NCBI GenBank assembly: GCA_006969625.1
Contig: CP030885.1
Location: 1,869,430 to 1,933,429 of the forward strand
Direction of reading: 5' to 3'
Length of the DNA stretch: 64,000 nucleotides
From: Rhodospirillaceae bacterium
Lineage (GTDB): Bacteria; Pseudomonadota; Alphaproteobacteria; Kiloniellales; DSM-21159
Translations under genes and position numbers: made by a program
Notes under the pieces: model-generated
What the model saw: the letters and a program-made list of their open reading frames with translations, nothing else
Databases searched by the model: none
What the model was told of the DNA's origin: nothing
Shown here: piece after piece, positions 27,930-48,917 of the stretch
How positions within the stretch are numbered: the first letter of the stretch is position 1
Layout of the letters: every line of letters begins with the position of its first letter

Positions 27930-29361
27930 CTAGCTCTCGAAGCGGGTCTTGCCGCGGCGGTGCACGTCGATCGGCAGGTCCATGTGCAGCGGCTGGTGCG
28001 CGCGCTGGGCGCAGTTCTGACGCGGGCAGAGCCGGCAGTTGATGCCGATCGGGGTGACCAGGTCCGGGTCGTCGAGCTGGAAGCGCTGGGCGTAGACGAG
28101 CTGGCTGGCGTGCTCGATGGCGCAACCGAGCGTCACCGCCAGCCGGTGGTCCTGCGAGGTGTGGCCGAGGCTGGGGCGGTCGACCGTGCGGTTGATCGTG
28201 AAATAGCGGCTGCCGTCCGGCATCTCGACGAATTGCGGCAGGATCCGCCCGGGCGTGCGGAAGGACAGGTGGATGTCCCAGCGCGGACAGGCCCCGCCGT
28301 ATTCCGCAAGATGGAAGGTGGTGGCGTTGAAGCGCTTCGTGACGTTGCCGGCCTTGTCGAGGCGCAAGAAGAAGAAGGGGACGCCGAGGGCGCCTTCGCG
28401 CTGCAGGGTGGTGACCCGGTGGCAGACCTGCTCGAAGGAGACCCCGAAGCGCAGCGCCAGATGGTCCAGGTCGTAGCGGCTGGCCAGCGCCTCCTCCAGC
28501 ACCTCGACGTAGGGCATCAGCACCGCGGCAGCGAAGTAGTTGGCGAGCTCCACCCGACAGCGCGCTTGGGCGCGCGGATCGCCGATGCCCGCCTCGGCGA
28601 TCACCACGTCGATCGTCTCGCGGTACTGCAGCAGGCCGGCCAAATGGGTGAGCTGGAAAACCTTGTTCGGATGGTCGAGTCCCTCCGACAGCAGCACTTC
28701 GCCGCGTCGCTCGTCGTAGGAGCGCAGCGTGTGCGGCAGCGTGGCGACCGGCACGGTGACCACGCGCAGGCCGAGGTCGCGCTTCAACCTCAGCTTCAGG
28801 TAGCCGTACATCTCGTCGGTCTCGATCGGCTCGCCGCGGCGGAAGTCCTCGGCGGCCCGCTCGAGCGCGTCGAAGTGGTTGCGATGGCGGCGAAAGAGGT
28901 CGTGGACGACGGTCTCCTGGGTGACGTCGGCGATCTGCTCGGCATCGCCGGTGCTGCCCACGCCCAGCGCCAGCAGGCGTTCGGTCAGGCTGCGGTAGCT
29001 CTTGTGCAGCGTCAGCAGGCTGGTGGCCAGCTTGGGGCTGTGGTCGACGGCGGCGCGCAGCTCCTGGAGGTCCGGCGTATCCGGTCCGAAGACCGGGTCC
29101 TGAAGCGCGTTGCGCAGGTCGCCGAGCAGGATGGTGGCGTCGTCGGCCAACAGGTCGCGCCAGTCGACGCCGTAGGCCTCCGACAGGCGCATCAGGACCT
29201 GGACCGACAGGCTACGCTGGTTGTTCTCCAAAAGGTTGACGTAGGCCGGGCTGACGCCGAGTTGGCGCGCCATCTCAGCCTGGCTTTGCCGACGCTCGCG
29301 GCGCAGTTGGCGCAGCCGTGGGCCGATGAAGGTTTTGCGCTGCTGCGCCGCCACGGCCATT
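27930..29361 (-). CDS. XRE-family HTH regulator with ImmA/IrrE-like and DUF2083-like C-terminal domains (ScfR/RamB type)
   Basis: Start at MAVAAQQRKTFIGPRLRQLRRERRQSQAEMARQLGVSPAYVNLLENNQRSLSVQVL (Cro/C1 HTH), followed by a long C-terminal domain containing a CPRWD ... Cys-rich region. Divergent from the aminotransferase gene. Confidence 0.7.
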
Positions 29362-29568
29362 GCCGCCTCCGGAGCCGTTCGCTGTGCATTTACAAATTTA
29401 CAAAAATCTGTGTTGTCAACAACACATCTTTCACGTTGACCCGATTTTCTTTCCCATATTGCCCGTGCACCGCCATCGTCGGGGCTCAATCGGCGGCCGG
29501 ACGCAACCTGGCTGCGGCGCCGCCGAACACGCGACACAACCAATGCCAGCTTGTGAGGACGCGGCCGA

Positions 29569-30803
29569 TGACGACTGCCACGCACCGCGGTGCGACCCGC
29601 CCCAAGCCCGGCATGACGCACCTGTTCATCCCCGGACCGACCAACGTGCCAGAGGCGGTGCGCCTGGCGATGAATGTCCCGATGCAGGACATGCGTGCGG
29701 CCGACTTCGGCGAACTCACGCTGCCGCTGTTCGACGGACTAAAGCGGGTCTTCAAGACCGACGCCGGCCGGGTCTTCATATTCCCCTCGTCGGGCACCGG
29801 CGCCTGGGAGGCGGCGATCACCAACACGCTCAATCCGGGCGACAAAGTGCTGATGTCGCGCTTCGGCCAATTCTCCCACCTCTGGGCCGAGATGGCCGGG
29901 CGGCTCGGGCTGCGGCCCGAGGTGATCGACGTCCCCTGGGGCGCCGGCGTGCCGGTGGAGGATTACGCCGCCACGCTGGCCGCCGACACGCGGCACGAGA
30001 TCAAGGCGGTCTTCGCCACCCACAACGAGACGGCGACGGGCGTCGCCTCCGACATTGCGGGCGTGCGCGCGGCCCTGGATGCCTGCGACCACCCGGCGCT
30101 GTTGTTCGTCGACGGCGTCAGCTCGATCGGCTCGATCGACTTCCGGATGGACGAGTGGGGCGTCGACCTCGCGGTCGCCGGTTCCCAGAAGGGCTTCATG
30201 ATGCCGGCTGGCTTGGCCTTCCTCGGCGTCAGCGCGAAGGCTCTGGCCGCCAGCGCCGGCTGTACGCAGCGGCGCGCGTACTTCGAGTTCGCCGACATGG
30301 TGCGCATGAACGCCGACGGCTTCTTCCCCTATACGCCGCCGACCCAGCTCTTCCACGGGCTCAAGGCGGCGCTCGAACTGCTGTTCGCCGAGGGCCTGGA
30401 GGCGGTCTTCGCCCGTCACGCGCGGCTGGCCGAAGGCGTGCGCCAGGGCGTCTTCGCCTGGGGGCTCGACCTCTGCGCCCTGGAGCCGCGCTGGTACTCG
30501 GATACGGTCAGCGCCGTGCTGGTGCCGGAAGACGTCGACGCCCGCGAAGTGATCCGCATCGGCTACGAGCGCTACCGCACCTCGTTCGGCAGCGGGCTGT
30601 CGCAGCTCGCCGGCCACGTTTTCCGCATCGGTCACCTCGGCGACCTCAACGAAGTGAGCTGCCTGGCCGCCCTGGCCAGCGCCGAGATGAGCCTGCGCGA
30701 CGCCGGCGCTGCCGTCGAACCGGGGGCGGGAGTCGCTGCGGCGCAGGAGTGGTTCCGCACCGGGGAGCGCCAGCCCCGGCTGCATGCGGTTGCCGCCGAA
30801 TAG
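29569..30803 (+). CDS. serine--glyoxylate / serine--pyruvate aminotransferase (class V, SgaA-like)
   Basis: HLFIPGPTNVPEAVRLAM ... FPSSGTGAWEAAITNTL ... ATHNETATGV ... GSQKGFMMPAGL (PLP lysine) ... FRIGHLGDLNE closely parallel my recollection of Methylobacterium SgaA. The start could also be the internal MTHLF. Confidence 0.8.
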
Positions 30804-36852: not shown

Positions 36853-37860
36853 ATGCGCCGGTTTCTGCTCGCCCTCTGCCTGCCGATCGCGCTGGCCCTC
36901 GCCCCCGCCGCCGCGCCGGCCGAGCCTGTCGCGCCGCGCGACCGGGCGGTGCCGGAGGGCACCGAAGGGCTGAGCGGCGAGGAGATCTACTGGCGCGCGC
37001 TGGAGGCGGCGGAGGCGGGCGACAGCCTGCGCTACGAGCGGCTGCTGGCGGCGGCGGCGGACAAGGGCGACCGCTTCGCCGGCCAGGACCTCGTGCGCCT
37101 GCACTACCTGCGCGGCGCGCCGGATTGGCGGGAGACGGCGCTCCGCTACCTGCGCCCCATCCCCCGCGACCCGCTCGTCGACGAGCAACACCTCTACTGG
37201 CTGGCGGCGGCGGGCGAGCGCCGGGAGCCGCCGCTGCCGCAGGCCCAGACCGACCTCTGGTACCGGATCGCCGCCTGGTCCTCGACGGATCTGCTGTGGC
37301 CGAACCGCGCCGACCTGCAGACCAAGCTGGCGCGCGCCGAAGAGCGCTGGCTGCTCGGCGGCGAGATCTCCTGGCGCTACCGCGAGCTGGTCGGCGAGGC
37401 GCTGCGCCTGCGGCGCGCCGACGGCGCCCGCCTGTACGCGGCCAGCCGCACGGTCTGCGACGCCCCCCTCGAGGACGCCGAATTGCTGTGCATGCAGTAT
37501 CTCGAAGCGGCCGCGGACAAGGATCATGCAAAAGCGCAGTTCGCCTACGCATCCAGGGTCCTGGATGCCCCACCGTACACACACCACGATACGGTCATCG
37601 TCTGGGCGGTCGGCTTGCTTTGTCGCGCCGGACAGAGCGGGATTGCCGAAGCCACTATTCGATTGGCACAGGCAGTCTTGGAACTTGAGGTGGCGCCGTC
37701 GCGGTTTCGTCTACAAGCCTACCTGCAACTAGAAGCGCTAGGTGAACCGCCTGCAGACCTCGGCGGGTTGCAGGATTTGCTGCGGATGTCTCTTACGAAC
37801 GAGCAGCTCAAATGGCTCGCGGACATGGCGGCGTGGGGCCGGTCTGCACCGGGCTGTTGA
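36853..37860 (+). CDS. array protein A1: secreted helical (Sel1/TPR-like?) protein, class I
   Basis: 335 aa. Sec signal MRRFLLALCLPIALALAPAAAPA. Collinear with A2/A4 (TDLWYRIAAW, GGEISWRYRELVGEA, CMQYLEAAADKDHAKAQF, LLCRAGQSG). Four Cys in the mature part, including a C-terminal Cys. Confidence 0.75.
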   Translation: MRRFLLALCLPIALALAPAAAPAEPVAPRDRAVPEGTEGLSGEEIYWRALEAAEAGDSLRYERLLAAAADKGDRFAGQDLVRLHYLRGAPDWRETALRYLRPIPRDPLVDEQHLYWLAAAGERREPPLPQAQTDLWYRIAAWSSTDLLWPNRADLQTKLARAEERWLLGGEISWRYRELVGEALRLRRADGARLYAASRTVCDAPLEDAELLCMQYLEAAADKDHAKAQFAYASRVLDAPPYTHHDTVIVWAVGLLCRAGQSGIAEATIRLAQAVLELEVAPSRFRLQAYLQLEALGEPPADLGGLQDLLRMSLTNEQLKWLADMAAWGRSAPGC

Positions 37861-37890: not shown

Positions 37891-39282
37891 TCAAGCCACC
37901 GGATCTCCCCCGCAGTGCCGGGCGATCTCGCGCTTCAGTTCCTCCATCGCCGCCAGGGCTTCGGCGATCGCGGCGTTGAGCTCTTCGATCTGCTCCGTCA
38001 GCTCGCGCCGCCGTTGCTGCCATGCTTCGAGTGCCGCAGAGGTCTCGGCGATGTCCGGGTCCAGATAGGTCGACGAGGGTCCCGGTTGCGGGCGAAACGG
38101 CTCTTCCTTCTCTGACTGTTTACGGCGTTGCAGGGCCTCGACGCCACGCCCGACGACGACGGCCAGCCGGCCGTAGGGGTGCCTCGACAGCAGCCAGAGC
38201 CCGAGGTCGATCGCCAATTCCAGCGCACCCAAGGCCGCTTGCGTTCGTCGGTAAGCTTGCCAAAGCCTCTCGAGCTCCTGTTCGAGCCGCGTTACCTCTT
38301 TCTGAGCTTTGTCGAGCAGTTCGGGCAGGCCTTTCTTCTTTTCCAGCGCCGTCTCGTATTCGCCCTCGCGCACGCGCAGTTCGTGCCGCAGGGCGCGGCA
38401 TTTCGCAGCACGGTCCGGCCCGTCCGGATGCTGGTCGCCGGGCGGCTTCGGCTTGACGCCGCCGGAGCCCGGCGCGTCGGGCTGCTCCGGCGTGCCCGGT
38501 TCCTCGGGCGGCGCCGGCGGGTTGGGCGTTGGCTCGGGTGTCGGATGTGGCTCCGGCGTTGGCTCCGGCTCCGGCGGCGTGTCGGCGTCCCGTTCGGGCG
38601 CCTGGAGTGGCAGGCCGGCGGCTTGGGCGAGGCTGCGCAGGGTCGGACCGTCGGGAGTGACGAGTCCGTCGACCATCAGGCCGTGCGCCTGCTGGAAGGC
38701 GCGGATGGCGGCGTCGAGGGCCTCGGTGACCTGCCCGCTCGGCTCGTGCGGCGGCTGCCAGTGGTACCAGCCGGTCCCCGCCAGGGCCTTCTGCAGGCCG
38801 ACCACGTCGCGCCGGGCGTTGCCGGGGGTGTTGACGGGAGCGTTGCCGGGGCGCCGGGAGCCGGCCGCCTGCGGCGCGGCGCCGCCGGTCGAAACGCTGC
38901 GGCCGACGGGCCCGCGCGGGTGCAGGTCCTGGGGCTTCGGCTCGGGGGCGAACCAGTCGAGCCCGCGGCGGCCCTCGGCGTACTCGGGCTTGGGCGCGGT
39001 CTCGCGCTGCCGGCCGGTAGCGTCCCGCTGGACCTTGCCGCTGCCGTAAACCTGGGCGTACTGGCGCCGGACGTACTGAAAATAATCCTCGTCCTGGTCC
39101 TGCCAGTACAGCGGGTCGGCCACCAGGCCGGTCAGCGCCCGCTCGATCGGCGTCGGTTCCTCGGGCCGCCGCCGGCGCCGTGCGGCGCGCGGGGCATAGG
39201 GATCGTAGGGATCGTCGGGATCGCCGCGCGAACGGCCACTGGAATCGGGGGCGAGGGGAGATCGAAAGCTGCCGCGGGCCAT
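37891..39282 (-). CDS. array protein B1: conserved N-region + PG_binding_1-like segment + PEPT linker + class I variable helical C-module
   Basis: Start favoured at MARGSFRSP (ATG 39282, GGAG 8 nt upstream); the track ORF begins at GTG 39333. RRDVVGLQKALAGTGWYHWQPPHEPSGQVTEALDAAIRAFQQAHGLMVDGLVTPDGPTLRSL resembles a peptidoglycan-binding repeat. The C-terminal 170 aa have heptad-like, charged coiled-coil character. Confidence 0.75.
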   Translation of the reverse strand: MARGSFRSPLAPDSSGRSRGDPDDPYDPYAPRAARRRRRPEEPTPIERALTGLVADPLYWQDQDEDYFQYVRRQYAQVYGSGKVQRDATGRQRETAPKPEYAEGRRGLDWFAPEPKPQDLHPRGPVGRSVSTGGAAPQAAGSRRPGNAPVNTPGNARRDVVGLQKALAGTGWYHWQPPHEPSGQVTEALDAAIRAFQQAHGLMVDGLVTPDGPTLRSLAQAAGLPLQAPERDADTPPEPEPTPEPHPTPEPTPNPPAPPEEPGTPEQPDAPGSGGVKPKPPGDQHPDGPDRAAKCRALRHELRVREGEYETALEKKKGLPELLDKAQKEVTRLEQELERLWQAYRRTQAALGALELAIDLGLWLLSRHPYGRLAVVVGRGVEALQRRKQSEKEEPFRPQPGPSSTYLDPDIAETSAALEAWQQRRRELTEQIEELNAAIAEALAAMEELKREIARHCGGDPVA

Positions 39283-39428
39283 GGTCCTGCTCCGGGTCGG
39301 TGGCACAGAGGGCATGGACCATAGCAAGAACACTCATCCAAGAGAAGAACAAAAAGGCATCAACTTGCGCGGCGGGAATCCGGCCGTCGGCGGCAGTTGG
39401 CCGGTGGTGTCGCGCGTGCGCTTGTCGT

Positions 39429-39464
39429 CTGGCAGAGCATGGCGCTGCGACCTATAGTGGCGGC
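39429..39464 (+). promoter_or_regulatory. conserved A-gene upstream architecture CTGGCA-N18-TATAGT-N6-ATG
   Basis: Read directly from the sequence. Same layout as upstream of A1, A3 and A5. A duplicate lies at 44295..44330. Confidence 0.45.
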
Positions 39465-40508
39465 ATGCTTCGCACGCTCGCCCGGAGCCTGGCACCGTTG
39501 ATCGCGGCCGTGTGGCTGGCCGCGGACCTTGGCGTGCCCGCGCAGGCCGAGCAAACCACGCCGCAGCCCGAGCCGCCGCGCGACCAAGTGGTGCCGGAGG
39601 GGATCGAGGGGCTGACGGCCGAGGAGATTGCTGAGTTAGCGATCGAGGCGGCACAGGCCGGGGACACCGAGCGCTATCTCGAACTCCTGGCGGCAGCGGC
39701 CTACGCTGGCGATGCACACTCCGCACGTCAGATGGCGCGCTTGGCATATGGGCGCCAGTGGCCGGGCTGGCCAGAGACGGCGCTTCGCTACGTCCGACCT
39801 ATTGCCGATGGTGCTGTTCTGAAGGCTGAATCCTTCTATTGGTTGGGATTCGCCGGGGAGAACGCCATCCCGTCTCTGCCCGAGGAACAAACCGATCTCT
39901 GGTACCGGATCGCCGCTTGGCACATGGCGAACAGCTACGGGGACAGCCGTGCCGACCTGCAAGTGCTTCTCGACCATTATGGAGAGGACTGGCTGAGCGG
40001 CGGCGAGGTTTCGTGGCGGTTTCGCGAGCTGGTGGGCGAAGCCTACGCGTTTCAGGCCAAGAGCGGGTCCTGGTTCTACGAGCAAGCTCTCAGCTATTGC
40101 AGCATGGCCCTCGAGCATGCAGGGATCCTCTGCCTGGACTATTTGGAGGTTGCGGCGCGAAAGGACCACCCGCGCGCGCAGTTCGACTTCGCTTGGCAGG
40201 TGTTGAACGCCTCGCCGGAGACAGCGTCGGAATCACGTCGGGCATGGGCGATGTCGCTCTTGTGTTTGAGCGGACAAAGCGGGGTCCGTGAAGCCACCAT
40301 CCTGCTGGCCCGAAAGATCGTCGAGAACGATCTCGGAGAAGGCCACTTCCGACCGCAAGCCTACTATCAGATTGGATTGATCGAGGAGCGAAATGAAGAG
40401 CTGGAGGAGCTTTTTCTGGAAATCGATAAGCGATTAAGTCACAATGAGCGATGGCAGTTGGAATACTCATATAAAAACGCCTTTCCCATTTCATGCTCAC
40501 ATCGCTGA
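39465..40508 (+). CDS. array protein A2: secreted helical protein, class I (identical to A4)
   Basis: 347 aa. Signal MLRTLARSLAPLIAAVWLAADLGVPAQA. Collinear with A1. Noticeably more AT-rich at its 3' end. Confidence 0.75.
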   Translation: MLRTLARSLAPLIAAVWLAADLGVPAQAEQTTPQPEPPRDQVVPEGIEGLTAEEIAELAIEAAQAGDTERYLELLAAAAYAGDAHSARQMARLAYGRQWPGWPETALRYVRPIADGAVLKAESFYWLGFAGENAIPSLPEEQTDLWYRIAAWHMANSYGDSRADLQVLLDHYGEDWLSGGEVSWRFRELVGEAYAFQAKSGSWFYEQALSYCSMALEHAGILCLDYLEVAARKDHPRAQFDFAWQVLNASPETASESRRAWAMSLLCLSGQSGVREATILLARKIVENDLGEGHFRPQAYYQIGLIEERNEELEELFLEIDKRLSHNERWQLEYSYKNAFPISCSHR

Positions 40509-40529
40509 CGCTGGACCGATGGCCTGCGC

Positions 40530-41375
40530 TCAACTCTGTGGCGGTGCAGGTGGCCGGCCGCCACAGTTCCGAGCAATCTCTTCCTGTAGTCGGTCTATGG
40601 CTGCCCGAGCTTCAGCGATCTCGGCATTCAGGCTTTCGATCTCGTCTGTGAGATCACGCCGTTCCTTCTGAAGCCTCTGCAGCCTCTCGGAGCTCTGCAC
40701 GATTTCGGGGTCAATCGGGCTGGGGGCACTCGGATTCCTGCGCCCCGCGTTCGCATGCTCCTTTAGCGCGCGCCGAAGCTCACGCATGCCGCGATGGACC
40801 GAGGTTGCTAGGAACCCGAGGGGGTGACGCCTGATCAACCACATGCCGAGTTCTATGGTTAACTCGATTGTAGCCTTCGTAGCCGCTTGCTGACGCTCCT
40901 TCTCCCAAAGCTGCGAAATCTTCTCTTCTAACGCTGTGATTCGTCCTTGAAGATCTTGTAGCGCTTCGGGCAGGCCTTTCTTCTTCTCCAGCGCCGTCTC
41001 GTATTCGCCCTCGCGCACGCGGAGTTCGTGCCGCAGGGCGCGGCATTTCGCAGCTCGGTCCGGCCCGTCCGGATGCTGGTCGCCGGGCGGCTTCGGCTTG
41101 ACGCCGCCGGAGTCAGGTTCTTCCGGTTCCTCGGGCTCCTCTGGCGTTGGCGTCGGCGTTGGCTCCGGCTCCGGCGGCGTGTCGGCGTCCCGGTCGGGCG
41201 CCTGGAGGGGCAGGCCGGCGGCTTGGGCGAGGCTGCGCAGGGTCGGGCCGTCGGGAGTGACGAGTCCGTCGACCGTCAGGCCGTGCGCCTGCTGGAAGGC
41301 GCGGATGGCGGCGTCGAGGGCCTCGGTGACCTGCCCGCTCGGCTCGTGCGGCGGCTGCCAGTGGTACCAGCCGGT
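40530..41375 (-). pseudogene. orphan B module B2': 5'-truncated B copy (partial PG-binding segment + linker + class I variant C-module)
   Basis: Homology to B1 starts abruptly at GTGWYHWQPPHEPSGQV. The frame is open up to a TAA at 41475-41477, but there is no ATG/GTG/TTG until GTG 41018 (VREGEYE...). The N-terminal 180 codons and the RBS of full-length B are absent. Confidence 0.7.
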
Positions 41376-41435
41376 GCCGGCCCGCAGGCTCTTCGAGCCT
41401 GCATCCGTGAAAGGTTTGGGACCGCGCGAACGCGG
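41376..41435. repeat. 60-nt double-hairpin element at the 5' breakpoint of orphan B2' (duplicate at 46242..46301)
   Basis: GCAGGCTC-TTC-GAGCCTGC (41384-41402) and GGGACCGCG-CGAA-CGCGGTCCC (41418-41439). B-like sequence (CCTTCTGCAG..) resumes briefly on the far side, so this looks like an insertion into B coding sequence. Confidence 0.6.
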
Positions 41436-41518
41436 TCCCCCGCCTTCTGCAGCCCGAGCAGGACGCGGCGTGCTTTAGTGGCGGCGCTGGCTAGGGGCTG
41501 GCGCGCTGCGGGCGGGCC

Positions 41519-41554
41519 CTGGCGGGGCGGCGGCGAAGCGCCTAGTCTGGTGGC
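41519..41554 (+). promoter_or_regulatory. conserved A-gene upstream architecture CTGGCG-N18-TAGTCT-N6-ATG
   Basis: Read directly from the sequence. A duplicate lies at 46385..46420 upstream of A5. Confidence 0.4.
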
Positions 41555-42646
41555 ATGCGCTGCCAAGTCGCCCTGTTGCTGTGCGTGTGTCTCGCGCTGG
41601 TGCTCGCGCCGGTGCCGGCGCAGGCGGCGCCGATGCAGGAGCGGGGCGCAGGGCAGGACGCCGAGGCGCCGCCCGCGTGGGATTGGCCGCCCGGCCCGAG
41701 CGTGATCTTCGATCCGACGACCGGCGAGACCCTGCGCATGCCGGACGAGCTGCGCGGCCTGCCACCGGAAGAGGTGTATGCGTTTTCCGAGGAGCTGCGC
41801 GCCGAAGGCGACGAGCGGCGAGCGGATACGCTCTTCGCCTTCGCCGGCTACATGGGATACCCTTTCGCGGCCGAGTGGCTGGCGCGTTTGGCTTTCGGTG
41901 AAGACTGGCCGGACGACCCGTCCCGCGTCTTCTACTTCGCCCATCTGGCGACCGAGCGTACCAACATGGCGAGGCGTGCCCACTTCTGGCTGGCGCTTGC
42001 CGGCGGCCATCCGGACATCGGCCTGGCGCCGGAGCAGCTCGAGATCTGGACCTTGGCGGCGGCGGCGGCCATGACGCGGAGTGACCAAGAGCTGTCTCAC
42101 CTCGAGCGCCGCCTCGAGCTGTTGCGCAGCGCACTTGGAGATTACTCCGAGTTGTTGGCGCCCACGGAGAGCGCCGCGCGAGACCTGCGGGCCAGTTTCG
42201 ACGCTGGACCGCACGCGCTTCTGGAGACGTACGCGCCCATCTGCGAAGGGCCTGACCTGCCCGGCCGTGACGTATTCTGTGCCGACATTTTTCTCTTCTT
42301 CCATGGCGACGATCCAAGGGCGATGCGACTGGGGAGCTTTGCGCTTTCGAACTTGGATCTTCGGTTCGAGCAATGGTTCCGCATCAGCAAAGCGCAGCGC
42401 CTGCTCTGTAAGCTGGCCTTGGAGGGTGACTCCGAGGCTGCGTATCGCCTCGGGATCCTGTTCCCCCATCATCAGTCCGCTAGCGGTCCGCAATCTCTCG
42501 ACGTCGCCGTGCTCCTTGCCCGTGCCGCACCTAGACTGCCAGCCGCAGCACCCTTGCTCGAAAACCTGATGGCCGACATGAGCGCGCGCGATAGGAGGCA
42601 AGTCGCGGTCTTGGCCGATGTCGATCGACCCCCGATCCGGTGTTAG
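41555..42646 (+). CDS. array protein A3: secreted helical protein, class II
   Basis: 363 aa. Signal MRCQVALLLCVCLALVLAPVPAQA. The first 100 or so aa are identical to A5 apart from one substitution, then the sequence is homologous but diverged. Motifs YAPICEGPDLPGRDVFC, RLLCKLALEGD, and a C-terminal Cys. Confidence 0.75.
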   Translation: MRCQVALLLCVCLALVLAPVPAQAAPMQERGAGQDAEAPPAWDWPPGPSVIFDPTTGETLRMPDELRGLPPEEVYAFSEELRAEGDERRADTLFAFAGYMGYPFAAEWLARLAFGEDWPDDPSRVFYFAHLATERTNMARRAHFWLALAGGHPDIGLAPEQLEIWTLAAAAAMTRSDQELSHLERRLELLRSALGDYSELLAPTESAARDLRASFDAGPHALLETYAPICEGPDLPGRDVFCADIFLFFHGDDPRAMRLGSFALSNLDLRFEQWFRISKAQRLLCKLALEGDSEAAYRLGILFPHHQSASGPQSLDVAVLLARAAPRLPAAAPLLENLMADMSARDRRQVAVLADVDRPPIRC

Positions 42647-42710: not shown

Positions 42711-44148
42711 CTACGCGCAGTGCCGGCGGATCAGCTCTTCCAGCGCCTCGATGCGCGCCGTCACCTCTGCCTTCCACGCTCGCTCGCGCTCCACCTCGTC
42801 CATGAGCCGAGCCTCCTCGGCCTTTGCCTCCAGATAGGCGTCCCAGAGGGCCCGCAGGTCGCCCGACGCCGCGAGGAGCTCCGGGTCCGGATCCGGCAAG
42901 TCGGGGCTTCCGCGGGGCCGGTCGGGCGCCTCCCGATCATCGCGCCGATCCCGCCTGTCGCGGTCGCCTCCGCCGGGTCGGCTGCGACCCCGGCCGTAGC
43001 GCCAGGACAAACCTTCCAGAATCCATTCTCCTACTTCCTCTGCCAAGTCTTTAAGCATAGAGTCTCGCCGCTTTTCTTGTACCTCTTTCAGTGTTTCTCG
43101 ATATTCCACGACGATATCTGATATTTTCCTCCCTTGTTCGATCAGCGCTTTGTCGAGGCGCTGGATTTCCTCCTCGGCCACCTCGAGCACGATGCGCAGG
43201 CGGGCGAGATCGCGGCGCGACTGCGCGCACTTGGCCGCGTCGGGGTCGTCCGGCGTGTCGGGGTCGTCCGGCGTGTCGGGCTCCTCCGGCTCCTCGGGCG
43301 GCGTTGGCGTCGGCTCCGGCGTCGGCTCCGGCGTCGGCTCCGGGGCCGGCGTCGGCTCCGGCTCCGGCTCCGGCGGCGTGTCGGCGTCCCGGTCGGGCGC
43401 CTGGAGGGGCAGGCCGGCGGCTTGGGCGAGGCTGCGCAGGGTCGGGCCGTCGGGAGTGACGAGTCCGTCGACCGTCAGGCCGTGCGCCTGCTGGAAGGCG
43501 CGGATGGCGGCGTCGAGGGCCGCGGTGACCTGCCCGCTCGGCTCGTGCGGCGGCTGCCAGTGGTACCAGCCGGTCCCCGCCAGGGCCTTCTGCAGGCCGA
43601 CCACGTCGCGCCGGGCGTTGCCGGGGGTGTTGACGGGAGCGTTGCCGGGGCGCCGGGAGCCGGCCGCCTGCGGCGCGGCGCCGCCGGTCGAAACGCTGCG
43701 GCCGACGGGCCCGCGCGGGTGCAGGTCCTGCGGCTTCGGCTTGGGCGCGAACCAGTCGAGCCCGCGGCGGCCCTCGGCGTACTCGGGCTTGGGCGCGGTC
43801 TCGCGCTGCCGGCCGGTGGCGTCGCGCTGGACCTTGCCGCTGCCGTAGACCTGGGCGTACTGGCGCCGGACGTGCTGAAAATAATCCTCGTCCAGGAGCG
43901 AGTTGCTCTGCAACTCGCTCCAGAACGTCGATTCTCGACCGAGGTCACTCGGTCCGGTCCTGCCAGTACAGCGGGTCGGCCACCAGGCCGCTCAGCGCCT
44001 GCTCGATCGGCGCCGGCTCCTCGGGCCGCCGCCGGCGGCGCCTTGCGGCGCGCGGGGCATAGGGATCGTAAGGGTCGCCGGTCGGATCGCCGGTCGGATC
44101 GCCACTGGAATCGGGGGTGAGGGGAGAACGGAAGCTGCCGCGGGCCAT
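42711..44148 (-). pseudogene. array protein B3 (class II C-module), reading frame split by a 62-nt insertion
   Basis: The N-terminal fragment 43945..44148 (MARGSFRSPLTPDSS...LYWQDRTE*) and the C-terminal ORF 42711..43913 lie in different frames. Alignment with B1/B5 shows an extra segment between ..AATAATCCTCGTCC and GGTCCTGCCAGTAC.. . The C-fragment could still be expressed from its internal ATG (MQSNSLLDEDYFQ). Confidence 0.7.
43894..43955. repeat. 62-nt double-hairpin insertion (MITE/REP-like) interrupting B3
   Basis: GGAGCGAGTTGC-TCT-GCAACTCGCTCC (43895-43921) and GACCGAG-GTCA-CTCGGTC (43937-43954). Absent from the equivalent position of B1 (about 39085) and B5 (about 48720). The net +61 nt causes a frameshift. 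Confidence 0.75.
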
Positions 44149-44330
44149 GGTCCTGCTCCGGGTCGGTGGCACAGAGGGAAGCGACCATAGCAAGAACACT
44201 CATCCAAGAGAAGAACAAAAAGGCATCAACTTGCGCGGCGGGAATCCGGCCGTCGGCGGCAGTTGGCCGGTGGTGTCGCGCGTGCGCTTGTCGTCTGGCA
44301 GAGCATGGCGCTGCGACCTATAGTGGCGGC

Positions 44331-45374
44331 ATGCTTCGCACGCTCGCCCGGAGCCTGGCACCGTTGATCGCGGCCGTGTGGCTGGCCGCGGACCTTGGCG
44401 TGCCCGCGCAGGCCGAGCAAACCACGCCGCAGCCCGAGCCGCCGCGCGACCAAGTGGTGCCGGAGGGGATCGAGGGGCTGACGGCCGAGGAGATTGCTGA
44501 GTTAGCGATCGAGGCGGCACAGGCCGGGGACACCGAGCGCTATCTCGAACTCCTGGCGGCAGCGGCCTACGCTGGCGATGCACACTCCGCACGTCAGATG
44601 GCGCGCTTGGCATATGGGCGCCAGTGGCCGGGCTGGCCAGAGACGGCGCTTCGCTACGTCCGACCTATTGCCGATGGTGCTGTTCTGAAGGCTGAATCCT
44701 TCTATTGGTTGGGATTCGCCGGGGAGAACGCCATCCCGTCTCTGCCCGAGGAACAAACCGATCTCTGGTACCGGATCGCCGCTTGGCACATGGCGAACAG
44801 CTACGGGGACAGCCGTGCCGACCTGCAAGTGCTTCTCGACCATTATGGAGAGGACTGGCTGAGCGGCGGCGAGGTTTCGTGGCGGTTTCGCGAGCTGGTG
44901 GGCGAAGCCTACGCGTTTCAGGCCAAGAGCGGGTCCTGGTTCTACGAGCAAGCTCTCAGCTATTGCAGCATGGCCCTCGAGCATGCAGGGATCCTCTGCC
45001 TGGACTATTTGGAGGTTGCGGCGCGAAAGGACCACCCGCGCGCGCAGTTCGACTTCGCTTGGCAGGTGTTGAACGCCTCGCCGGAGACAGCGTCGGAATC
45101 ACGTCGGGCATGGGCGATGTCGCTCTTGTGTTTGAGCGGACAAAGCGGGGTCCGTGAAGCCACCATCCTGCTGGCCCGAAAGATCGTCGAGAACGATCTC
45201 GGAGAAGGCCACTTCCGACCGCAAGCCTACTATCAGATTGGATTGATCGAGGAGCGAAATGAAGAGCTGGAGGAGCTTTTTCTGGAAATCGATAAGCGAT
45301 TAAGTCACAATGAGCGATGGCAGTTGGAATACTCATATAAAAACGCCTTTCCCATTTCATGCTCACATCGCTGA
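44331..45374 (+). CDS. array protein A4 (identical to A2), class I
   Basis: The translation is identical to 39465..40508. Confidence 0.75.
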   Translation: MLRTLARSLAPLIAAVWLAADLGVPAQAEQTTPQPEPPRDQVVPEGIEGLTAEEIAELAIEAAQAGDTERYLELLAAAAYAGDAHSARQMARLAYGRQWPGWPETALRYVRPIADGAVLKAESFYWLGFAGENAIPSLPEEQTDLWYRIAAWHMANSYGDSRADLQVLLDHYGEDWLSGGEVSWRFRELVGEAYAFQAKSGSWFYEQALSYCSMALEHAGILCLDYLEVAARKDHPRAQFDFAWQVLNASPETASESRRAWAMSLLCLSGQSGVREATILLARKIVENDLGEGHFRPQAYYQIGLIEERNEELEELFLEIDKRLSHNERWQLEYSYKNAFPISCSHR

Positions 45375-45395
45375 CGCTGGACCGATGGCCTGCGC

Positions 45396-46241
45396 TCAAC
45401 TCTGTGGCGGTGCAGGTGGCCGGCCGCCACAGTTCCGAGCAATCTCTTCCTGTAGTCGGTCTATGGCTGCCCGAGCTTCAGCGATCTCGGCATTCAGGCT
45501 TTCGATCTCGTCTGTGAGATCACGCCGTTCCTTCTGAAGCCTCTGCAGCCTCTCGGAGCTCTGCACGATTTCGGGGTCAATCGGGCTGGGGGCACTCGGA
45601 TTCCTGCGCCCCGCGTTCGCATGCTCCTTTAGCGCGCGCCGAAGCTCACGCATGCCGCGATGGACCGAGGTTGCTAGGAACCCGAGGGGGTGACGCCTGA
45701 TCAACCACATGCCGAGTTCTATGGTTAACTCGATTGTAGCCTTCGTAGCCGCTTGCTGACGCTCCTTCTCCCAAAGCTGCGAAATCTTCTCTTCTAACGC
45801 TGTGATTCGTCCTTGAAGATCTTGTAGCGCTTCGGGCAGGCCTTTCTTCTTCTCCAGCGCCGTCTCGTATTCGCCCTCGCGCACGCGGAGTTCGTGCCGC
45901 AGGGCGCGGCATTTCGCAGCTCGGTCCGGCCCGTCCGGATGCTGGTCGCCGGGCGGCTTCGGCTTGACGCCGCCGGAGTCAGGTTCTTCCGGTTCCTCGG
46001 GCTCCTCTGGCGTTGGCGTCGGCGTTGGCTCCGGCTCCGGCGGCGTGTCGGCGTCCCGGTCGGGCGCCTGGAGGGGCAGGCCGGCGGCTTGGGCGAGGCT
46101 GCGCAGGGTCGGGCCGTCGGGCGTGACGAGTCCGTCGACCGTCAGGCCGTGCGCCTGCTGGAAGGCGCGGATGGCGGCGTCGAGGGCCTCGGTGACCTGC
46201 CCGCTCGGCTCGTGCGGCGGCTGCCAGTGGTACCAGCCGGT
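45396..46241 (-). pseudogene. orphan B module B4' (identical to B2')
   Basis: The ORF 45396..45884 translation is identical to 40530..41018. The upstream in-frame B-like sequence lacks a start codon, as in B2'. Confidence 0.7.
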
Positions 46242-46420
46242 GCCGGCCCGCAGGCTCTTCGAGCCTGCATCCGTGAAAGGTTTGGGACCGCGCGAACGCG
46301 GTCCCCCGCCTTCTGCAGCCCGAGCAGGACGCGGCGTGCTTTAGTGGCGGCGCTGGCTAGGGGCTGGCGCGCTGCGGGCGGGCCCTGGCGGGGCGGCGGC
46401 GAAGCGCCTAGTCTGGTGGC

Positions 46421-47512
46421 ATGCGCTGCCAAGTCGCCCTGTTGCTGTGCGTGTGTCTCGCGCTGGTGCTCGCGCCGGTGCCGGCGCAGGCGGCGCCGAT
46501 GCAGGAGCGGGGCGCAGGGCAGGACGCCGAGGAGCCGCCCGCGTGGGATTGGCCGCCCGGCCCGAGCGTGATCTTCGATCCGACGACCGGCGAGACCCTG
46601 CGCATGCCGGACGAGCTGCGCGGCCTGCCACCGGAAGAGGTGTATGCGTTTTCCGAGGAGCTGCGCGCCGAAGGCGACGAGCGGCGAGCGGATACGCTCT
46701 TCGCCTTCGCCGGCTACATGGGGTATCCGCCCGCTGCGTCAAACCTGGCGCGTTTGGCTTTCGGTGAAGATTGGCCGGACGACCCGTCGCGCGTCTTCTA
46801 CCTCGCCCATCTGGCGACCGAGCGCAGCACGCTACCCAGCTCTGCCTATTTTTGGCTCGCGATTGCCGGCGCCCATCCCAAGATCGCTCTCGGACCGGAG
46901 CAAATCGAGATCTGGACGCTCGTCACCGCTGCCTCCATGGCGTATCCAGATCAGGAGCCGGCGTTTCTCGATGAAGCGCTCGGTCGTCTGAGCCGGTGGC
47001 TCGGCAACTACACCGAGCTGCTGCGCCCGGTTGAGATGACAACTCGGCGCCTGCAGGCCAAGTTCGACGAAGGTTCAGCGGCGCTCGTGGACGCCTATGC
47101 GCCCGTCTGCGAGGGGCCCGACCTGCCCGGCCGGGACGTGTTCTGCGCCAACGTTTTCCTATTCGATCACGGTGACGATCCGAAAGCGATGCGCTTCGGC
47201 AGTTTCGCGCTCTCGAACCTCGATTTGCGCTTCGTTGCCTGGTACCGGATCAATGCAGCGCAAAGGCTACTTTGCAACCTGGCGAATGGCGGCGATATCG
47301 AGGCTCTGCGGCGGTTGGCACGGCTGTACCAATATCATCAGCCGGCCAGTCGGCCGCATCCGAGAGATGTTGCCGTCCTGTTTACCCGCGCCGCACCGAC
47401 CATGCCGAGCGTTGCCTCAGCGCTCGAGAAGCTGCTGGCAGACATGAGCGCGGAAGACCGGACCCAGGTGGAAGCTCTGGCAGCGACCGACGGATTGCCG
47501 CCGAGGTGCTAA
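46421..47512 (+). CDS. array protein A5: secreted helical protein, class II
   Basis: 363 aa. Shares the signal peptide and first 100 or so residues with A3 (one substitution, A/E), then diverges while staying collinear (YAPVCEGPDLPGRDVFC, RLLCNLANGGD, C-terminal Cys). Confidence 0.75.
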   Translation: MRCQVALLLCVCLALVLAPVPAQAAPMQERGAGQDAEEPPAWDWPPGPSVIFDPTTGETLRMPDELRGLPPEEVYAFSEELRAEGDERRADTLFAFAGYMGYPPAASNLARLAFGEDWPDDPSRVFYLAHLATERSTLPSSAYFWLAIAGAHPKIALGPEQIEIWTLVTAASMAYPDQEPAFLDEALGRLSRWLGNYTELLRPVEMTTRRLQAKFDEGSAALVDAYAPVCEGPDLPGRDVFCANVFLFDHGDDPKAMRFGSFALSNLDLRFVAWYRINAAQRLLCNLANGGDIEALRRLARLYQYHQPASRPHPRDVAVLFTRAAPTMPSVASALEKLLADMSAEDRTQVEALAATDGLPPRC

Positions 47513-47564: not shown

Positions 47565-48917
47565 TTAGGTACACTGCTCGCGGATCAGTTTCTCCAAAGC
47601 GTCGATACGCCTTACGATGTTGCTCTTTCTCCGCCTTTCGCTCTCCAGCTCGCGAGCGAGCTTCGCGTGCTCCGCTTTCGCTTCCCGGTAATCGTCCCAT
47701 AAGCCCCGCAGCTTGATCGAAGCTTCGAGGAGTTCCGGGTCCGGCTCTGGCAAATCGGGCACATCCTCGGTGTCGCCCCGGCGCTTGCCGTCGTTGCGTT
47801 CGTCTGGAGACCTGGTGTCTCTGGGGCGGCGGCGCCCGATTTTCAATCTTTGGAGAAAAAGCCCGAGCGCATACTCTGCAGCATCTTCGAGGATAGATCC
47901 TTTAGCCTTTTCGACTGCGTCATTGTAAGCAATTTGGAATTCTTCTGCTTTGTCCCATACGGTTTCCGCCTGCTCTGCTTGCATGGATTCGAGGCGCTGG
48001 ATTTCCTCCTCGGCCACCTCGAGCACGATGCGCAGGCGGGCGAGATCGCGGCGCGACTGCGCGCACTTGGCCGCGTCGGGGTCGTCCGGCACGTCGGGGT
48101 CGTCCGGCGTGTCGGGCTCCTCCCGCTCCTCGGGCGGCGTTGGCGTCGGCTCCGCGTCTGGCTTTGGCTCCGGGTTCGGCGTTGGCGTCGGCGTTGGCTC
48201 CGGCTCCGGCGGCGTGTCGGCGTCCCGGTCGGGCGCCTGGAGTGGCAGGCCGGCGGCTTGGGCGAGGCTGCGCAGGGTCGGGCCGTCGGGCGTGACGAGT
48301 CCGTCGACCGTCAGGCCGTGCGCCTGCTGGAAGGCGCGGATGGCGGCGTCGAGGGCTTCGGTGACCTGCCCGCTCGGCTCGTGCGGCGGCTGCCAGTGGT
48401 ACCAGCCGGTCCCCGCCAGGGCCTTCTGCAGGCCGACCACGTCGCGCCGGGCGTTGCCGGGGGTGTTGACGGGAGCGTTGCCGGGGCGCCGGGAGCCGGC
48501 CGCCTGCGGCGCGGCGCCGCCGGTCGAAACGCTGCGGCCGACGGGCCCGCGCGGGTGCAGGTCCTGGGGCTTCGGCTCGGGCGCGAACCAGTCGAGCCCG
48601 CGGCGGCCCTCGGCGTACTCGGGCTTGGGCGCGGTCTCGCGCTGCCGGCCGGTAGCGTCCCGCTGGACCTTGCCGCTGCCGTAAACCTGGGCGTACTGGC
48701 GCCGGACGTACTGAAAATAATCCTCGTCCTGGTCCTGCCAGTACAGCGGGTCGGCCACCAGGCCGCTCAGCGCCCGCTCGATCGGCGCCGGTTCCTCGGG
48801 CCGCCGCCGGCGCCGTGCGGCGCGCGGGGCATAGGGATCGTAGGGATCGTCGGGATCGCCGCGCGAACGGCCACTGGAATCGGGGGCGAGGGGAGATCGA
48901 AAGCTGCCGCGGGCCAT
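47565..48917 (-). CDS. array protein B5: full-length, class II variable C-module
   Basis: MARGSFRSP start at 48917 with the same GGAG context. The N-terminal 260 or so aa are nearly identical to B1. The C-module shares AAKCAQSRRDLARLRIVLEVAEEEIQRL with B3, then diverges. Ends ..LIREQCT. Confidence 0.75.
   Translation of the reverse strand: MARGSFRSPLAPDSSGRSRGDPDDPYDPYAPRAARRRRRPEEPAPIERALSGLVADPLYWQDQDEDYFQYVRRQYAQVYGSGKVQRDATGRQRETAPKPEYAEGRRGLDWFAPEPKPQDLHPRGPVGRSVSTGGAAPQAAGSRRPGNAPVNTPGNARRDVVGLQKALAGTGWYHWQPPHEPSGQVTEALDAAIRAFQQAHGLTVDGLVTPDGPTLRSLAQAAGLPLQAPDRDADTPPEPEPTPTPTPNPEPKPDAEPTPTPPEEREEPDTPDDPDVPDDPDAAKCAQSRRDLARLRIVLEVAEEEIQRLESMQAEQAETVWDKAEEFQIAYNDAVEKAKGSILEDAAEYALGLFLQRLKIGRRRPRDTRSPDERNDGKRRGDTEDVPDLPEPDPELLEASIKLRGLWDDYREAKAEHAKLARELESERRRKSNIVRRIDALEKLIREQCT

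Follow-up and report, generated by a model that had tools for sequence, protein, structure and literature searches.

A tandem array of signal-less peptidoglycan-binding proteins with convergent signal-peptide partners in a Rhodospirillaceae bacterium, probably a polymorphic effector-immunity locus

The stretch of DNA analysed here, referred to below as the window, comprises 64,000 nucleotides of a Rhodospirillaceae bacterium (contig CP030885.1, positions 1,869,430 to 1,933,429) and contains an array of five tandem genes on its minus strand, designated B1 to B5, each of which lies tail-to-tail with a plus-strand gene (A1 to A5; Table 1). Two of the B copies are intact (B1 and B5), one is broken (B3) and two are 5′-truncated orphans (B2-delta and B4-delta); every A gene is intact. 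The product of the B1 open reading frame (ORF) is the same as NCBI protein P0001 (100% identity over 463 aa) and a GGAG motif resembling a ribosome-binding site is found 9-12 nt 5′ of its ATG. The B proteins possess a peptidoglycan (PG)-binding domain but no signal peptide, their A neighbours are predicted periplasmic proteins, and the B family probably represents a rare and unannotated group of polymorphic antibacterial effectors.

In silico analysis shows that B1 is modular in structure, and every element which the original prediction had listed from the sequence was found, in the order given there. The N-terminal leader of 45 aa contains 10 Arg, 9 Pro and 5 Asp. Within the first 70 aa the top 12-aa window on the Kyte-Doolittle (KD) scale reaches 0.90, compared with 2.2-3.35 in the neighbouring A proteins, which bears out the claim that the N-terminus has no hydrophobic h-region; starting the protein at an alternative, longer position (39333) likewise gives no h-region in the same scan. 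The leader is followed by a conserved domain of about 85 aa (N-domain) with the pattern L..L..DPLYW...D.(E/D)(F/Y)..V..Q(F/Y)..V(F/Y)G.G....DATGR...P.P...F.P....D....PVG, and the aromatic and acidic block noted earlier (DPLYWQD...YFQYVRRQYAQVYGSG) is real, forming the core of this domain as it is kept in distant relatives. The PG_binding_1 pattern that had been read from the letters corresponds to a Pfam match at aa 159-210, well over the Pfam gathering cut-off of 23 bits, although it is a single domain and not the repeat that had been described. This domain is as strong in B5 (E-value 1.5e-9) and B3 as in B1, and is the sole Pfam match of B. Nothing exceeded the curated cut-offs of NCBIfam for B, and PADLOC gave nothing significant, with a single marginal coiled-coil match (E-value 0.009). 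Endolysin families of PHROGs match B1 only at aa ~140-221, its PG-binding part, and the catalytic muralytic domain of a phage endolysin was found in B1 with neither Pfam nor PHROGs.

A Pro/Glu/Thr linker, as had been claimed, is present at aa ~228-290 and leads into the C-terminal module (C-module). The expectation that this module forms a helical hairpin was upheld when an AlphaFold2 model was made: helices are predicted at aa 289-316, 319-367, 371-391 and 409-457, with a predicted local distance difference test (pLDDT) score of 89-96 over aa ~290-350 and 410-455, and the loop at 392-408, which interrupts the return arm, is disordered. The model is built on a shallow alignment of seven sequences and its confidence outside the hairpin, PG domain included, is low. 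A fold search with it against BFVD gave nothing significant (E-values of at least 0.006); likewise, its fold matches to EnvC, RipA and an internal virion protein are not significant and are not treated as evidence. W-TIP, a pore-forming toxin domain (PMC3482391), and WHIX (PMC12135965) were also considered for B and rejected, as the defining motifs and sizes of these published domains do not fit.

Exactly two cysteines are present in each of B1, B5 and their relatives P0003, P0061, P0079 and P0143, one in the opening turn and one in the closing turn of the C-terminal helical module. All seven aligned sequences have this pair without exception, and in B1 it consists of C295 and C457, the only cysteines of the protein. 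Judged from the helix boundaries rather than from coordinates, the two should adjoin in an antiparallel hairpin, and such a clamp at the hairpin base points to an oxidising compartment, as far as the model goes.

The B genes are mosaics. By sliding identity, the DNA of B1 and B5 is 95-100% identical from the start codon to position ~38546, declines stepwise inside the linker (63%, 50%, 35%), and is 35-50% identical throughout the C-module and the entire A gene. At the protein level, identity in the PG-binding core is 97-100% across all five B copies and in the C-module 24-51%, where two groups are apparent, {B1, B2/B4} and {B3, B5}. The A proteins are 24-73% identical and fall into the groups {A1, A2/A4} and {A3, A5}, mirroring those of the C-modules. 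Over 38786-38597 (PG-binding/linker region) the orphans B2/B4 retain 85-97% identity to B1, a homology patch that could support recombination. The first ~300 nt of A3 and A5 (41515-41814 and 46381-46680; signal peptide and first helices) are 99-100% identical and are followed by 40-80% identity, so that these immunity-like genes are mosaics in their own right, with a recombination breakpoint inside the gene. GC content is 0.59-0.71 in the A genes and C-modules, lowest in A2/A4 and in the modules of B2, B4 and B5, compared with flanking DNA at 0.71-0.73 and the conserved 5′ part of B at 0.75; GC at third codon positions is 0.65-0.85 in the A genes and C-modules versus 0.92-0.96 in flanking genes. 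By base composition the A/C-module cassettes are foreign-looking.

Table 1. Features of the A/B array and of gene B1, with positions in the window
Feature	Position	Strand	Basis or remark
A1 (335 aa), putative type I cognate immunity protein of B1	36853..37860	plus	Sec signal, Sel1-like solenoid
B1, intact full-length putative effector gene, type I C-module	37891..39282	minus	463-aa ORF
B1 aa 1-45, Arg/Pro/Asp-rich leader, hydrophobic core absent	39148..39282	minus	Composition and Kyte-Doolittle scan; pLDDT <50
B1 aa ~46-131, conserved N-domain	38890..39147	minus	Kept in 15 distant cluster representatives; no Pfam/PDB match
B1 aa 159-210, PG_binding_1 (PF01471)	38653..38808	minus	E=1.4e-9, 38.4 bits
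B1 aa ~228-290, Pro/Glu/Thr linker	38413..38601	minus	Holds the B-paralogue DNA identity break (~38546-38450)
B1 aa 295-457, variable C-module, predicted helical hairpin	37912..38400	minus	Bounded by C295 and C457
A2 (347 aa), type I′ immunity-like	39465..40508	plus	43% identical to A1, 100% to A4
B2-delta, 5′-truncated orphan, type I′ C-module	40530..41474	minus	Frame translation, alignment; C-module 51% identical to B1
A3 (363 aa), type II immunity-like	41555..42646	plus	73% identical to A5, 24-27% to type I A proteins
B3, full-length copy, broken; type II C-module	42711..44148	minus	DNA alignment with B1 and B5
Palindromic insertion interrupting B3, ~61 nt	43895..43960	minus	The only one in the window; chance expectation 0
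A4, duplicate of A2	44331..45374	plus	99.5% identical segment
B4-delta, duplicate of orphan B2-delta	45396..46340	minus	Sequence comparison
A5 (363 aa), type II′ immunity-like	46421..47512	plus	Equals NCBI protein P0005
B5 (450 aa), intact full-length putative effector gene, type II′ C-module	47565..48917	minus	Equals NCBI protein P0002

The orphans B2-delta and B4-delta begin in the middle of PG_binding_1 and have no N-domain, and neither has a start codon ahead of its C-module (in B2-delta, none before 41018). In B3, an insertion and a stop directly follow the codons for DPLYWQD. The insertion has two palindromes, one of them a perfect 12-bp stem at 43895-43921 (GGAGCGAGTTGC/GCAACTCGCTCC), and may be a small mobile element, a terminator-like insert or a repair scar. 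The segments 39218-41560 and 44084-46426 are 99.5% identical, which identifies A2/B2-delta and A4/B4-delta as a recent tandem duplication. On the metagenome contig L001 (9950-9975) a direct duplication of ~14 nt breaks the gene for a further B copy, P0004, at these very codons (PLYW), and another relative is split into P0030 and P0009. Two independent disruptions a few nucleotides apart may mark a hot spot, or they may be due to chance or assembly error.

Close relatives of the pair are few. When 5.8 billion proteins were searched by word index, B and A had just four matches each, and a scan of GTDB genomes with a B profile gave only generic PG_binding_1 proteins and no family member. The source genome has a second locus, outside the window, with a third full-length paralogue (P0003) and an orphan fragment of 186 aa (P0059); the C-module type of P0003 differs from those of the array, being common to the metagenome proteins P0004 and P0009, and P0059 is of the same type. 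Metagenome contig L011 represents the same chromosomal site and has the left-flank genes of the window (AMP-binding, ApbA), next to which is a type I A gene (51% to A1) tail-to-tail with a B gene bearing a type I C-module, while on L001 the copy encoding P0004, with a third C-module type, sits beside some of the right-flank genes (DLH, OpuAC). The pairing of a type I C-module with a type I A is seen again in an unrelated metagenome-assembled genome (L020, 10001-16285). Three A homologs (30-46% to A1/A2), all intact, are each matched there by a B copy in tail-to-tail orientation, and every one of these B copies is degenerate, through deletion of the PG domain, 5′ truncation or truncation of the C-module. 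Its sister assembly (L021, 10001-11920) has one A/B pair at the site where L020 has three. B1, B2/B4 and the copy on L011 have the type I tip motif of the hairpin, W-L-x-x-R-H-P-x-G, as has one of the copies in L020, where another retains R-H-P-x-G without the tryptophan.

The A proteins have the features of exported solenoids. The N-terminal hydrophobicity of A1 (KD 2.8) is that of a Sec signal, and the mature A proteins have four invariant cysteines, the C-terminal residue included. Apart from the signal peptide they are soluble, and no signalling domain was found in them. AlphaFold2 models A1 with confidence (pLDDT 84, predicted TM score 0.79) as 16 paired helices, and in Foldseek the model matches the Sel1-like repeat (SLR) protein 4bwr (E-value 1.8e-4), followed by 6onw, 8sxq and HcpC (1ouv), all with probability 1.0, with TM scores against the SLR structures that are low (0.25-0.35). 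Also matched were PA5088, PA5087 and PA5086, periplasmic immunity proteins of a type VI secretion system (T6SS), with E-values of 0.012-0.095 (PA5088 0.012) and probabilities of 0.94-1.0.

A wider family emerged when 1.84 billion representatives were searched exhaustively with HMMER, using a profile of the conserved half of B. About 15 distant clusters match from the first profile positions. They share an N-domain of about 85 aa, with the pattern L..L..DPLYW...DPEF..V..QF..VFG.GP...DATGR...P.P...F.P....D....PVG.G..N, which is followed directly by PG_binding_1, and a signal peptide was found in none of these ~15 relatives. Their C-termini vary. P0022 ends in Peptidase_M23, P0026 in a tail-lysozyme-like domain (PHROG, E-value 2.7e-10) and P0023 in a domain that is lytic-transglycosylase-like, going by its source name (PDB 9vi7, E-value 0.009); P0015, P0016 and P0101 have an unrecognised C-terminal domain, and coiled-coil C-termini are found in P0025, P0044, P0061, P0079 and P0143. 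In the four genomic contexts read (P0022, P0023, P0026 and P0158), the next gene in each case encodes a signal-peptide or membrane-anchored protein, one of these having a weak Sel1 match. An N-domain profile in the word-indexed search added fragments only, and a four-sequence N-domain alignment found no confirmed relative in IMG/VR and the JGI metagenomes.

Two further observations were made in these contexts. An ORF of 145 aa follows P0023 and a small signal-peptide protein (L014 11793-12230; L015 2386-2823); it resembles the C-terminal domain of P0015/P0016 and, by this resemblance, seems to be an orphan module belonging to a different type of toxin. The gene after P0022 (L013 1282-2748) encodes a signal-peptide protein of 488 aa with three tandem cysteine-rich repeats (ITPTEADSACIGDPVTPVCAVET...) and no Pfam match, and a fourth, partial copy of the repeat begins at 2830.

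A conserved N-domain with variable C-termini, neighbouring genes for signal-peptide or membrane proteins, and an orphan module together form the signature of polymorphic toxin/immunity systems (PMC3482391, PMC4436062). The array itself has divergent C-modules behind a conserved N-region, an adjacent covarying partner of putative immunity function, and orphan cassettes. We therefore favour, as the probable though by no means certain explanation, that the B/A locus is a polymorphic effector-immunity array acting in the periplasm of target cells and that B1 is an intact member of it. The paradox pointed out in the original prediction, a PG-binding domain with no visible Sec, Tat or lipoprotein signal, is real and extends through the family, the ~15 distant relatives being alike in this respect. 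The first option offered there, an unrecognised means of export, need not be invoked, as known one-step machines such as the T6SS carry signal-less cargo. Its other option, that the protein acts after lysis or transfer, fits best with the polymorphic effector pattern and the signal-peptide partner A. If so, B would have no signal peptide because, as an effector, it never passes through the periplasm of the producer and exerts its effect in that of another cell. What decides this is context that the prediction overlooked, namely the 5′/3′ mosaic, the orphans, the covarying A genes, the two-Cys clamp and the enzymatic C-termini of relatives. The analysis shows the domain content, the lack of a signal peptide, the mosaic structure and covariation, the orphans, the Cys pattern, the fold and signal peptide of A, and the enzymatic C-termini of relatives; that B is toxic, that A confers immunity, that the cysteines form a disulfide, where B acts and by what route it is delivered are inferred.

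A possible course of events is as follows. B, built from a disordered Arg/Pro-rich leader, the N-domain, PG_binding_1, a Pro/Thr/Glu linker and an exchangeable C-module, would be made in the cytoplasm with no signal peptide and would leave by a route that bypasses the producer's periplasm, such as a contact-dependent injector (e.g., a T6SS), a phage-tail-like particle or lysis-type release. On arrival in the periplasm of a neighbouring cell, PG_binding_1 would anchor it on the sacculus and the C-module would do the damage. In the present array this module would be a non-enzymatic helical hairpin of ~170 aa, whose cysteines could form a disulfide only outside the cytoplasm and whose moderately hydrophobic or basic tip is the likely active end, either disturbing the inner membrane or binding a periplasmic target. 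In the periplasm of kin, the Sec-exported, Cys-containing, Sel1-like solenoid A would bind the matching type of hairpin and neutralise it. The array would serve as a store of alternative toxin/immunity cassettes, which could be swapped onto the conserved 5′ half through recombination in the PG-binding/linker region. A bolder proposal is offered tentatively, as we think it rather less likely than not to hold in full: the DPLYW...DATGR domain would be a new delivery tag, possibly derived from a podophage ejection protein, for a new class of signal-less effectors acting in the periplasm, and the two-Cys hairpin a new type of non-enzymatic toxin that gains its activity only once it is oxidatively clamped in the victim's periplasm and that is neutralised type-specifically by Sel1-like solenoids.

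Several findings weigh against B being a toxin and A its immunity protein. With regard to delivery, no known trafficking domain was matched by the N-domain in Pfam, NCBIfam, PHROGs or PDB, the 30 ORFs scanned in the 64-kb window include no secretion, adaptor, vgrG/hcp/PAAR, lysis, phage or mobile-element gene, and no gene of any of these kinds lies within 10 kb of four relatives. With regard to toxicity, the hairpin was assigned as the toxic part by analogy of position, as it occupies the slot where relatives carry hydrolases; it has no catalytic motif, B1 has no transmembrane-grade segment (the top 19-aa window, KD 1.34, is at the hairpin tip), and Foldseek searches of the B1 model against PDB returned only generic coiled coils, all with E-values of at least 0.13. 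As to the partner, Pfam Sel1 gives no match at E<=1 for A1, A2, A3 or A5, the SLR assignment thus being at the level of fold, and the A genes are convergent with B and not co-transcribed, which is atypical of polymorphic toxin loci. Finally, metagenome assemblies, in which frameshifts may be artefacts, are the source of many broken B copies found beyond the window.

The remaining genes of the window are for metabolism and transport. At 60091-63997 lies a pair of genes for a DabB-like protein (Proton_antipo_M) and DabA (PF10070, E-value 1e-265), a probable inorganic-carbon pump that is unrelated to the array. A regulator of the short-chain fatty acyl-CoA type, combining a helix-turn-helix (HTH) domain with Peptidase_M78 and ScfRs, is encoded on the minus strand at 27930-29738; the same HTH/Peptidase_M78/ScfRs combination is also found near the family locus in L016, probably by coincidence.

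One member of the wider family is found in a phage setting. The gene for P0079 (L019, 9429-13710) lies between tail-protein genes phrog_394 and phrog_376, with portal, scaffold and capsid genes adjoining, in a podovirus-like block. In P0079, PG_binding_1 and a PT linker are joined to a two-Cys coiled coil whose tip is glycine-zipper-like, and the first half of the N-domain is lacking. It is followed by genes for two multi-pass membrane proteins (136 and 67 aa) in a patch of 40% GC, compared with ~50% around it, and P0079 and these two proteins could be a toxin and its immunity proteins in the membrane, or else a module of the lysis type. The module may have originated as a virion protein or may equally be a toxin cassette carried by a phage as a moron.

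This raises the question of whether B is itself a virion protein of a phage or phage-like particle (an ejection, internal-virion or tail-associated protein), with the arrays being cargo or accessory genes of a tail-like particle or one of the gene transfer agent type that is encoded elsewhere. We regard this as unlikely, though it survives better than the other alternatives. The layout that P0079 shares with B would agree with it, as would the resemblance of the P0026 and P0023 C-termini to tail lysozyme and lytic tail proteins; the viral fold search also lists an internal virion protein of a Roseobacter podophage, not significantly (E-value 0.094). However, neither the window nor the surroundings of four other family loci include a phage gene, a scan of IMG/VR found no relative, and tblastn against 50,697 phage genomes returned no match for B1 or P0079; extended to plasmids as well as phage genomes, it gave none for B1, P0079, the N-terminal half of B1 or A2. 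The N-domain of P0079 is incomplete, and with the two small membrane-protein genes in its low-GC patch P0079 looks like a moron, a toxin cassette carried by the phage. Virion proteins, moreover, need neither covarying signal-peptide partners nor arrays of orphans.

Slightly less probable again is that A and B determine identity in non-lethal kin recognition by a logic like that of Proteus IdsD/IdsE, B being a variable coiled-coil ligand that is delivered and A the variable receptor by which the recipient reads it. A non-enzymatic hairpin would suit such a role, the variation is located in the C-module of B and in A with matched types, and the copy number differs between related assemblies. Against this, the slot of the hairpin is filled in relatives by peptidoglycan hydrolases, which are toxins, an intact A beside a decayed B is a pattern of protection and not of signalling, and A is a soluble periplasmic solenoid lacking a signalling domain. 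It is very improbable that A and B are housekeeping envelope proteins, with B, exported by an unrecognised signal, as a coiled-coil scaffold anchored on PG and A as its partner in the periplasm of the same cell, since PG_binding_1, Cys patterns typical of periplasmic proteins and the non-significant nearness in Foldseek of coiled coils such as the periplasmic EnvC and RipA hairpins have to be set against the extreme rarity of the family (the four B and four A matches cited above), a tandem arrangement in which copies are truncated or broken, tails are hypervariable and GC is atypical, and the absence of a signal peptide from every family member.

Taken as an effector-immunity array, the locus can be compared with known systems. 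Polymorphic toxins such as Rhs, CdiA and MafB (Zhang et al., 2012, PMC3482391; Jamet and Nassif, 2015, PMC4436062) also have a conserved N-terminal region and exchangeable C-modules, with the gene for a cognate partner linked to the variable end; their 5′-truncated orphans, by which such loci are in part defined (PMC4436062), keep a homology patch as they do here, the number of cassettes varies by strain, and PGB adhesion domains are among their components (PMC3482391). B differs in being much smaller (450-463 aa); RHS and filamentous haemagglutinin repeats are absent from it, as are pre-toxin motifs of the VENN or PT type. Nor was a trafficking domain or linked secretion apparatus, as expected for polymorphic toxins, found in the window or in the fetched flanks of relatives, and the partner gene is convergent instead of downstream in an operon.

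For delivery, T6SS cargo is the nearest precedent, and a putative one in the present case. Cargo effectors such as PldB/Tle5b, with PA5086-5088, and VgrG4, with Sel1E, are signal-less and act in the target periplasm, as B is proposed to do, and are neutralised by signal-peptide SLR solenoids, the role suggested for A; SLR immunity is known from VgrG4 and Sel1E of K. pneumoniae (PMC7108748). PG_binding_1 is among the domains fused to T6SS toxins (PMC10673891), and WHIX effectors target peptidoglycan (PMC12135965); as in the wider B family, PG_binding_1 is N-terminal to the toxin domains in these proteins and the polymorphic C-termini are mostly PG-targeting enzymes. Unlike T6SS effectors, B has no Pfam match to MIX, FIX, RIX, WHIX, PAAR or VgrG, no adaptor was found, and the 30 ORFs include no T6SS gene, with neither vgrG nor hcp within the 64 kb. 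The C-module of B is neither a lipase nor a hydrolase, in which it also differs from effectors of the PldB/Tle5b type.

The signal-less effectors of the Xanthomonas type IV secretion system (X-Tfe; PMC6536674) likewise possess PG_binding_1 and act on the target cell wall, as B may do, and their periplasmic immunity partners (X-Tfi) are comparable with the putative role of A. The polarity is reversed, as X-Tfe have a conserved C-terminal secretion domain (XVIPCD) and variable N-terminal toxins, while in B the N-terminus is conserved and the C-terminus variable.

Long helical hairpins are part of the architecture of colicins. Like the pore-forming colicins, B has no signal peptide, a disordered N-terminal region and a C-terminal domain that would be responsible for killing. 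Immunity to these colicins is encoded on the strand opposite to the toxin gene, from a separate promoter (PMC4436062), as the A genes also lie opposite to B, and when the window ORFs and the Pfam matches of B were examined for a lysis gene or a colicin domain, neither was found and this orientation was the sole colicin feature in common. No receptor-binding part and no Tol/Ton box is recognised, and the B/A locus is chromosomal. A would be a soluble periplasmic solenoid and not an integral membrane protein, and the hairpin has no hydrophobic helical core, in line with the low KD maximum at its tip.

The locus is best filed as a polymorphic effector-immunity array, a known kind of system, here in a variant with an unannotated N-terminal domain, a new two-Cys hairpin module and convergent Sel1-like partners. 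The family is tiny (~15 clusters in 1.84 billion representatives) and lies outside secretion gene clusters, and effector searches based on gene neighbourhood would therefore miss it. If the proposed roles are true, the N-domain would be a new conserved N-terminal module and a candidate tag for secretion or loading, the hairpin would be a new non-catalytic toxin fold with an activity that perhaps depends on a disulfide formed in the target, and the A proteins would be a further case of Sel1-like immunity proteins. The array would also bring together, in little space and without any engineering, toxin/immunity pairs of three types in one genome, both cognate and non-cognate, that are well suited to studies of binding specificity between coiled coils and solenoids.

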